Notes: generated from the letters alone by a model not told the origin. Shown: positions 21,370 to 22,535, counted from the stretch's first letter. The stretch is 23,003 bases of DNA from Candidatus Bathyarchaeota archaeon ex4484_205 (GCA_002255045.1 NJEE01000007.1:1-23003); one strand, 5' to 3'. Translations and numbers: made by a program.

Positions 21370-21435
21370 GTGACACAACATCCATCACTAAAATATGTAA
21401 TTAAACTCTTATTTGAGGTCGAGGGTGTCGTGGAA
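21370..21435 (+). CDS. dnaG: dnaG (archaeal DnaG primase / exosome-associated Toprim protein), exon 1
   Basis: Frame 1 reads (V)TQHPSLKYVIKLLFEVEGVVE and then hits TGA at 21436. It matches the conserved archaeal DnaG N-terminus (KY.I...FEV.GVVE). The start is GTG 21370 or GTG 21361, after GGAGGTG. Confidence 0.7.
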
Positions 21436-21458
21436 TGAACCTATAAAGGTTCCCACTG
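21436..21458 (+). other. 23-nt bulge-helix-bulge intron within the dnaG coding sequence (predicted)
   Basis: - Central helix: GTGG (21430-33) / CCAC (21453-56).
- 5' bulge: AAT (21434-36).
- 3' bulge: TGA (21457-59).
- Inner helix: GAACC (21437-41) / GGTTC (21448-52), with loop TATAAA.
- Short outer helix: 21427-29 / 21460-62.
- Cutting 2 nt 3' of each central-helix strand removes 21436-21458 and joins GAA|AGA in frame. Confidence 0.7.
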
Positions 21459-22535
21459 AGATCGGATATCATAGGAGCTGTCTTCGGGCAGACCGAAGGG
21501 CTCTTTGGCGATTTTCTCGACCTCAGGGAACTGCAAAGAACAGGACGAGTAGGAAGAATAGAGGTAGAGATAAATGTGAGAGAAGGAAAGAGCTATGGGA
21601 CAATAATCGTTCCCACTGGACTCGATCAAGCGACAGCATCACTACTAGCAGCGACAATAGAGAGCATAGAACGGGTAGGACCATTCAAGTGTAAAATTAA
21701 GCTCTCTGCATTTGAAGACATAAGAGAGGAGAGGAAGAAGAAAATTATTAAGAGGGCTAAGGAGATACTTAGTGAGATCACCGCTGAAGAGTGGAGTGGA
21801 TCATTAGAGGCGCTTAAGGAGATAACCGAGGTCAAAAAGAGAGAGATTGTAAGTTATGGAGAGGAAAAGATACCGGCAGGCACTGATGTAGAGAAATCTA
21901 GAGAGATCATTTTGGTAGAGGGAAGAGCTGATGTGAATGTTCTGTTGAAGGCAGGATATGGAAATGTAATATCTATAGAAGGAGGAAATATACCTAAGAG
22001 TGTTGTCGAACTGACAAAAAGAAAAGATAAGGTGACAGTATTGCTGGATGGAGATACAGCGGGCGACAAACTTCTGAAGACGGTATTGGAGAGATGTAAG
22101 GTAGATTATATCGCGAGGGCACCTAAGGGTAAGGAGGTAGAGGAACTCACTCCTTCAGAAGTTCGGAGGATACTAAGGAATAAGGAAGAAGTAGAGAGAG
22201 TAATTTCAAAGCTTCACATACCCAAGCTAAGTAAAGAGGAACGAGAGAAGGCCCTCACCATCGCTGAGAACATATATGGCAAATTGAAGGCAGTATTTTT
22301 AGATGGCAAGTGGAAAATTATTGGAGAGACTCCAATTGTAGATATGATGAAGGAGCTAGATAAAACTCCAGAGACTAAGATAATTATAATGGACGGCGTA
22401 ATTACACAAAGAGTCCTAGATAAGGCATACTCTAAAGGAATAAGAAGGATAATAGGACAAAGAATAGGAGAGATCGAGAAGAAACCTGGCGACATAGAAA
22501 TCCTTACGACAGAGGAGTTAAAGGAGGATACTTGA
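21459..22535 (+). CDS. dnaG: dnaG, exon 2
   Basis: Frame 0 reads RSDIIGAVFGQTEGLFGDFLDLRELQRTGRVGRIEVEI...IIVPTGLD...ILVEGRADVNVL...VLLDGDTAGD (Toprim). The frame is open only from 21447 and has no credible start of its own before the conserved block. Confidence 0.85.
   Translation, partial: RSDIIGAVFGQTEGLFGDFLDLRELQRTGRVGRIEVEINVREGKSYGTIIVPTGLDQATASLLAATIESIERVGPFKCKIKLSAFEDIREERKKKIIKRAKEILSEITAEEWSGSLEALKEITEVKKREIVSYGEEKIPAGTDVEKSREIILVEGRADVNVLLKAGYGNVISIEGGNIPKSVVELTKRKDKVTVLLDGDTAGDKLLKTVLERCKVDYIARAPKGKEVEELTPSEVRRILRNKEEVERVISKLHIPKLSKEEREKALTIAENIYGKLKAVFLDGKWKIIGETPIVDMMKELDKTPETKIIIMDGVITQRVLDKAYSKGIRRIIGQRIGEIEKKPGDIEILTTEELKEDT

Follow-up and report, generated by a model that had tools for sequence, protein, structure and literature searches.

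A 23-nucleotide insert in archaeal dnaG as a very probable bulge-helix-bulge intron

In a 23,003-nucleotide (nt) stretch of DNA from Candidatus Bathyarchaeota archaeon ex4484_205 (GCA_002255045.1, NJEE01000007.1:1-23003), here described as the window, the gene dnaG is interrupted by 23 nt. Very probably, as read from the DNA, these 23 nt are carried by the dnaG pre-mRNA as an archaeal intron of the bulge-helix-bulge (BHB) type, located between a GAA (Glu) and an AGA (Arg) codon. That reading is based on the manner in which the frame is broken and then restored, on the geometry of the predicted RNA, on inserts found at the same codon boundary in relatives, and on compensatory changes among those inserts.

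The proposed mechanism is one in which the end of exon 1 (GUC GUGG AA) would pair with CCAC of the intron and GAU of exon 2, giving rise to a BHB. The tRNA splicing endonuclease (EndA) would then cut after the second nt of each bulge, and an RtcB-type ligase would join ...GUGGAA to AGAUCG.... Full-length DnaG, i.e., with its conserved N-terminal domain, would be translatable only after such splicing, with unspliced mRNA instead yielding a peptide of 22-25 amino acids (aa).

The peptide encoded by exon 1, (M)YEVTQHPSLKYVIKLLFEVEGVVE, ends in ...KYVIKLLFEVEGVVE, and its frame is closed by TGA 21436-21438, directly after the GAA codon. The frame of exon 2 is closed by TAA 21444-21446 and so is open only from 21447, with RSDIIGAVFGQTEG... 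read from A21459. Removal of 21436-21458 joins GTGGAA to AGATCG, resulting in a 383-aa protein which matches the archaeal DnaG family NF003108 of NCBIfam with 413.8 bits (curated cutoff 300), covering profile positions 1-275 in one stretch through the junction. The Toprim domain is found at residues 174-254 of this spliced product, downstream of the N-terminal domain. Versus 11 homologues, the junction is free of gaps (VVE/RSD as compared with VVEKPD or VVEKSD in intron-less DnaGs), and the exon 1 peptide aligns to the N-termini of intron-less DnaG proteins. A first-pass annotation of this DNA had claimed that a 23-nt insert splits dnaG at a BHB motif, that its excision restores the frame, that the resulting junction resembles that of other archaeal DnaGs, and that the upstream segment belongs to DnaG; coordinates, stops and frames were all as claimed, and the homology bears out the rest. 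The spliced mRNA is predicted to contain, spanning the junction, the 30-mer GGTGTCGTGGAAAGATCGGATATCATAGGA, and the protein to read ...EVEGVVER/SDIIGAVFGQTEGLFGDFLDLR about that point. As to where translation begins, GTG 21370 is probably the start rather than GTG 21361, because a GGAGGT (21357-21362) ends 7 nt before it. The insert is not repeated elsewhere in the window, nor did Pfam scans of 13 other open reading frames (ORFs) there reveal a second split gene.

Gene callers report only a 319-aa ORF from GTG 21576 (P0001-P0006), and the six nearest database proteins, 99-100% identical, are all this same truncated call. From that perspective dnaG may be viewed as truly split, that is, as a short exon 1 peptide along with a truncated DnaG translated from an internal start, and with no splicing involved. 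The closest further relatives (P0007-P0009, ~50% identity) would seem to allow as much, as an in-frame GTG inside of a 36-nt insert permits a protein ITGFPS-RSD..., with the called proteins beginning ITGFPS-RSDLIGAIFGQTEG, exactly at the junction. We nonetheless regard a split gene as very unlikely. The earliest in-frame start codon of exon 2 is GTG 21576, with no in-frame ATG, GTG or TTG present from 21447 to 21575, yet among the 39 conserved, start-less codons that follow the insert (residues 26-64) are columns invariant in DnaG as well as its best-conserved motif (IGAVFGQTEGLFG..DLRELQ..GR.GR). The internal starts also differ between families, an NCBI gene call is forced to begin at an ATA codon, and a covarying BHB positioned exactly at the boundary would be left without explanation.

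Splicing by way of a BHB, by contrast, would account for that structure, the elements of which are listed in Table 1. Two 3-nt bulges are found on opposite strands with a 4-bp helix between them, and cuts after the second nt of each bulge produce the junction that gives an intact DnaG match. The order of elements is outer helix, 3'-strand bulge, 4-bp helix, 5'-strand bulge and inner helix, which is the handedness of the pre-tRNA arrangement at position 37/38, as derived from a tRNA-Pro gene of the window. The intron thereby has the strict hBHBh' form, in which h is the outer helix, H the central helix and h' the inner hairpin, with h, however, weak. The helices and bulges previously claimed, i.e., GUGG/CCAC, AAU and UGA, are borne out, with the inner hairpin now parsed as 6 bp closed by an AUAA loop, and the claimed rule of cutting 2 nt 3' of each central strand is consistent with both the junction and the rule for cbf5. 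That rule places each cut between the second and third nt of the bulge and has been documented for the cbf5 intron (PMC2738675).

Table 1. Coordinates of predicted features of dnaG, of its putative intron, and of the delimited introns of the tRNA-Pro gene (positions in the window)
Feature	Position	Strand	Remarks
dnaG exon 1	21361..21435	+	GTG 21361 to GAA 21433-21435; from ORF list and translation
Predicted 23-nt intron, TGAACCTATAAAGGTTCCCACTG	21436..21458	+	starts with a TGA stop in exon 1 frame
dnaG exon 2	21459..22535	+	RSDIIGAVFGQTEG ... Toprim domain ... stop
Outer helix h, 5' strand GUC (Val codon)	21427..21429	+	pairs with GAU 21460-21462 (C-G, U-A, G.U)
Central 4-bp helix H, 5' strand GUGG	21430..21433	+	in exon 1; pairs with CCAC 21453-21456
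5' bulge AAU	21434..21436	+	3 nt in minimum free energy fold; predicted cut after A21435
Inner hairpin h', GAACCU / AUAA / AGGUUC, 6 bp	21437..21452	+	from folding and covariation
Central helix H, 3' strand CCAC	21453..21456	+	in intron
3' bulge UGA	21457..21459	+	from motif geometry; predicted cut after G21458
Outer helix h, 3' strand GAU	21460..21462	+	inside codons AGA UCG
tRNA-Pro intron at 37/38, 12 nt	6819-6830	-	
tRNA-Pro intron at 45/46, 16 nt	6795-6810	-	
tRNA-Pro intron at 59/60, 11 nt	6770-6780	-	

When a 42-nt core is folded by minimum free energy (MFE), three of the elements reappear, namely the central helix, the hairpin and the 5' bulge, with z = -3.6 and none of 200 shuffles as stable; for a stretch of 61 nt the MFE z is -1.8. 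BHB motifs by themselves are cheap. A loose scan, i.e., one asking for a central helix of 4 bp, for 3 bp or more in both the outer and the inner helix, and for a length of 11-120 (110 lengths), finds 178 of them on the two strands of the window, or about 3.5e-5 per position-and-length. What is not cheap is for the cut sites of such a motif to coincide with a single junction which is fixed by homology. Only three motifs of the window combine a length of no more than 30 nt with 5 bp or more in the inner helix, and the dnaG insert is one of those three.

Inserts are found as well at the same boundary in relatives. In the DNA which encodes P0007-P0009, exon 1 (...KYLIRLTYEVDGVVE) is followed by a 36-nt insert and then by exon 2, with the codon boundary the same and with a BHB, the layout of this family being gggtc GTGG aaa AAGCCTAG...CTGGGTTT CCAT cta gatcc. 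Metagenomes were scanned using a pattern in which GTGGAR is separated by 19-49 nt from a back-translated D.[VI]GA[VI]FGQTEG. This yielded 87 matches, 46 of which are dnaG contigs with an insert at the same boundary (...GVVE/[KR][SPH]D...), the other 41 being intron-less genes that match by chance. Lengths of the metagenome inserts are 18, 21, 24, 25, 29, 30, 32, 33, 36, 41 and 42 nt; together with the window's 23 nt this makes 12 length classes spanning 18-42 nt, with inner sequences that are unrelated. A second GTDB scan gave 80 DnaG loci, 74 with the conserved downstream motif and only 2 of those 74 with an insert, and an 18-nt insert is present in the two GTDB loci JAAOZO010000025 and JBAMLO010000014. 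Two metagenome-assembled genomes at NCBI possess inserts of 32 nt (GCA_038850895.1) and 29 nt (GCA_038884095.1), with the gene in both annotated from a start downstream of the intron; counting the two GTDB loci, four public genomes of this type thus have the insert. Clade members named at NCBI are annotated in truncated form, either as 'toprim domain-containing protein' or as 'DNA primase DnaG'.

BHB geometry of this same kind recurs in 40 distinct related sequences, and when one representative per length class is folded by MFE, most classes display the central helix along with the hairpin and the 5' bulge. Two 42-nt introns (L119 and L153) differ from one another at about eight positions, some of them inside internal stems. 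In both, the central helix has a G.A mismatch at its inner end, the fold is harder to make out than in the other families, and an extra internal hairpin may be present.

For assessment of covariation, 34 distinct sequences were aligned by anchoring on the protein-defined junction, i.e., not on RNA structure. The alignment retained the central helix and both bulges, 5 nt from each strand of the outer helix, and, from the inner helix, the 5 positions beside the central helix. Standard pairs occupy 90.3% of cells, versus 32.6-52.7% when 3' partners are slid by 1-3 columns. Both sides vary in 8 of the 14 pairs, as compared with an average of 5.3 in shuffles, none of 500 of which reach 8, though these shuffle statistics, to the detriment of the argument, are inflated by sequence relatedness, while the slid-partner control is unaffected. 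Covariation is seen at all five of the scored inner-helix pairs (GC/AU/GU/UA types). In the outer helix, the innermost pair joins base 3 of the Val codon to base 2 of the Lys/Arg codon; 17 sequences have UA there, 12 have CG and 3 have UG. Structure, that is, has been retained among homologous introns by compensatory changes, and at the same codon boundary, which is one of the outcomes that the first-pass annotation had proposed looking for in an alignment of relatives.

These same families bear on a further alternative, which is that the insert is not removed but instead is passed over during translation, i.e., by a ribosome hop (bypass, as with phage T4 gene 60) or by a frameshift. A stop immediately following the last exon 1 codon, in combination with a stable hairpin, does resemble the gene-60 take-off site. 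A matching landing codon, however, is missing: the only downstream GAR (GAG 21458-21460) is out of frame, matched take-off and landing codons are absent also from the other insert families, and the Arg/Lys codon at the junction is conserved as coding. Frameshifting by -1 or +1 is impossible given that from 21436 to 21446 neither frame is open, with no overlapping open frames. Inserts of 18-42 nt with unrelated sequences, moreover, have BHB geometry alone in common, and recoding strikes us as extremely improbable. Removal at the RNA level, by comparison, is a reading for which inserts that always block translation are the expectation. All seven of the length classes that are divisible by 3 (24 distinct sequences) have a stop in the exon 1 frame and the remaining five classes all shift the frame, so that an in-frame insertion which could be translated is found in no lineage. 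This may reflect selection against translation of unspliced mRNA.

An interrupted reading frame can also be the mark of a decaying pseudogene or of an error in assembly or sequencing, and NCBI indeed names several of the relatives as just a truncated 'toprim domain-containing protein'. The first-pass annotation had itself raised the issue of an assembly artefact. Near-identical contigs, however, are found in at least nine metagenomes, and nine contigs, which come from as many samples and were built by several assemblers, match the window over 261 nt save at one position, with the 23 nt present in all nine of these independent assemblies. The sole polymorphism, A21439G, lies in the intron stem, where it converts an A-U pair to G.U. 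Both exons are, in addition, under coding constraint across lineages that are ~50% identical, exon 1 showing synonymous changes; no second lesion is found anywhere in dnaG; and the interruption is at the same codon boundary in 46 of 46 contigs. A pseudogene or artefact can hardly be credited as a consequence.

Certain observations nevertheless weigh against splicing as envisioned here, in addition to the inflation by relatedness noted above. Cleavage, ligation and the identity of the enzymes are what we infer for dnaG from sequence, and neither endA nor rtcB is present in the 23-kb window. The window's outer helix is only 3 bp, one pair of which is G.U, because of which the MFE fold favours a 1-nt rather than 3-nt 3' bulge. 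The metagenome pattern fixed GTGGAR as the end of exon 1, which makes the 5' strand of the central helix invariable and means that intron-bearing genes using other codons are missed. One mismatch in the central helix is seen in several families, with the 3' strand being CCAA (G.A mismatch) in nine sequences and CCUC, ACAC or ACAU in a few; such inserts count as relaxed BHBs, for which an endonuclease of broad specificity would be required. An initial scan of the contigs of GTDB r232 species representatives, using the spliced protein, returned nothing, the genome of the window being absent from that set, and exact look-up of seven predicted spliced proteins (from the window and the 36-nt lineages) in a collection of 15 billion proteins found none of them.

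The window does contain a tRNA-Pro(CGG) gene (6753-6896, minus strand), which was parsed by hand from a GC-rich island and which has at least four introns. Three of these are delimited (Table 1) and follow the same cut rule as the dnaG insert, consistent with the earlier claim that tRNA introns of this window obey it. About 29-31 nt more must be removed from the D-arm region. Following intron removal, the ARAGORN score is 124.8. In the window as it stands, ARAGORN, with or without its intron mode, and Rfam detect no tRNAs, thereby missing tRNA-Pro, and a T-arm pattern search is at chance level. To our knowledge, three introns is the most that has been reported for one archaeal tRNA gene, and four would be unusual. 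Archaeal pre-tRNA introns at both canonical and non-canonical positions have reportedly been described by Marck and Grosjean in 2003 and by Sugahara in 2008. As this tRNA-Pro needs at least four introns removed, it lends indirect support to the presence and use of BHB splicing machinery in this organism. Non-canonical tRNA intron positions accompany broad-specificity endonucleases, i.e., (alpha-beta)2 or epsilon2 (PMC5829648), and cbf5 splicing has been connected with this same class of endonuclease (PMC10485636).

When 130 exon 2 proteins are placed in a neighbour-joining tree, 36 of 36 intron-bearing sequences are in one clade, though this is a quick distance tree and the intron-bearing sequences were sampled using a pattern that requires the intron, so losses within the clade are possible. 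The window lineage is the earliest branch of that clade, which is one of uncultured Thermoproteota. Its sister group consists of intron-less Nitrososphaeria sequences (L039, L046, L061 and L071), with Bathyarchaeia and the rest falling outside. This fits a single gain followed by turnover of both length and sequence. The window's DnaG is at most about 50% identical to that of any other lineage. Since its uL3 is only 55-59% identical to the best named relatives (Thermoproteota archaeon, Hecatellales, Brockarchaeota and Bathyarchaeota), the source organism is a deep Thermoproteota lineage.

As to gene neighbourhood, dnaG (21361-22535, plus strand) is preceded by a small stand-alone Toprim protein of about 145-165 aa (20821-21264, minus strand) and followed by tsr3 (Ribo_biogen_C; 22542-23003, minus strand). 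This Toprim-dnaG-tsr3 order is common to the window and to distant intron-bearing relatives (L032, L180 and L181). The last of these, JAVZKV010000008.1 (GCA_038884095.1), is labelled by NCBI as Candidatus Hadarchaeum sp. Because its 29-nt intron and gene order are as in the Thermoproteota clade, mis-binning or mislabelling of that contig is suggested.

Upstream, at approximately 20706-20862 (plus strand), is a GC-rich intergenic stretch with two hairpins, GGCCCCUCC...GGAGGGGU-ACA and GGGCUCAGC...GGCUGAGCC-ACA, that is, each followed by ACA. Rfam gives a weak match there to the HgcG/Pab40 H/ACA family (29.9 bits, E = 6e-5, under the gathering score), and the stretch is probably a double-hairpin H/ACA guide RNA. 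This candidate and the minus-strand Toprim ORF overlap at the 3' end of the latter. The second hairpin of the candidate contains a BHB-like motif (20814-20842) that is probably incidental.

The known system to which the dnaG intron is most readily compared is the cbf5 intron of Desulfurococcales and Sulfolobales (Yokobori 2009, PMC2738675), it too being a short BHB-type intron in coding sequence. Both have a predicted cut between bulge nt 2 and 3 and a position that is conserved within the clade, both have a host gene involved in RNA metabolism, and in both cases the hosts carry non-canonical tRNA introns. Though it would work like the cbf5 intron, that of dnaG is not a member of the cbf5 family, as the host gene is dnaG and the site is not the cbf5 catalytic-Asp codon. 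It instead is found in the region of the N-terminal domain, in phase 0, between Glu and Arg/Lys. The clades too are different, i.e., uncultured Thermoproteota beside Nitrososphaeria rather than Sulfolobales/Desulfurococcales, and the window's motif has the strict hBHBh' form, as against a relaxed one in most cbf5 introns. Splicing of cbf5, furthermore, has been shown by means of complementary DNA and in vitro cleavage, while that of dnaG we infer. The cbf5 pre-mRNA intron is said to have been described as well by Watanabe in 2002 and Yoshinari in 2006.

Other systems are similar only in part. Haloferax volcanii HVO_1309 (PMC7714728; PMC10485636), like dnaG, has an mRNA with a BHB for the archaeal splicing endonuclease. 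That intron, unlike the dnaG intron, is experimentally verified and is located in a 5' untranslated region (5'UTR), leaving the frame uninterrupted, and in a euryarchaeon with an alpha2 endonuclease. Archaeal pre-tRNA introns (as cited in PMC2738675 and PMC3082918) have the same motif, handedness and cut rule. With dnaG, however, the substrate would be an mRNA and the exon strands are codon-constrained, such that the third base of Val covaries with the Lys/Arg codon. With HAC1/XBP1 splicing (IRE1 plus tRNA ligase or RtcB; PMC13149111), as with what is proposed for dnaG, an endonuclease cuts at two stem-loop sites independently of the spliceosome, and a tRNA-type ligase restores a frame that is needed for active protein. 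HAC1/XBP1 nonetheless is eukaryotic, employs IRE1 instead of EndA, and is a stress-regulated switch, a role that for dnaG would be speculative.

The dnaG intron, then, is of a known kind of element and mechanism, not a new mechanism. The only coding-sequence BHB intron named in the sources consulted is that of cbf5, with HVO_1309 a 5'UTR case (PMC7714728, PMC2738675, PMC10485636). In the openly searchable literature, i.e., with subscription-only papers outside of the search, there is no prior report of a dnaG intron in connection with archaea and BHB. The earlier claim that cbf5 is essentially the only coding case agrees with that literature, to which HVO_1309 is added as a 5'UTR case. Going by the genes, dnaG would be the second archaeal coding sequence known to need BHB-type splicing. 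Coding-sequence BHB introns known so far are from one gene, cbf5, and one group of Crenarchaeota, and dnaG adds a different clade. A 2023 review expects that more such introns probably are still to be discovered (PMC10485636).

Archaeal DnaG is a subunit of the RNA exosome and has a conserved RNA-binding N-terminal domain (PMC4227792), the start of which is encoded by the part of dnaG that the intron interrupts. Annotation is corrected as well: the truncated dnaG calls drop part of that domain, and where an archaeal gene appears to break frame, gene finders should check for a BHB motif. The dozens of natural variants, in 12 length classes, approximate a mutagenesis experiment on how much variation the endonuclease accepts in an mRNA substrate. 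The finding bears also on the origin and persistence of protein-coding introns where translation starts on the nascent transcript, as archaeal translation is generally taken to do. A more ambitious idea, which we consider doubtful, is that the dnaG intron is ancient and vertically inherited, having been kept by selection as an obligatory checkpoint throughout the history of this class-level clade, with synthesis of DnaG, both exosome subunit and primase, gated by how active the tRNA splicing endonuclease and ligase are. If that were true, then the intron would be an archaeal counterpart of the regulated unconventional splicing of the HAC1/XBP1 type, rather than a neutral passenger.

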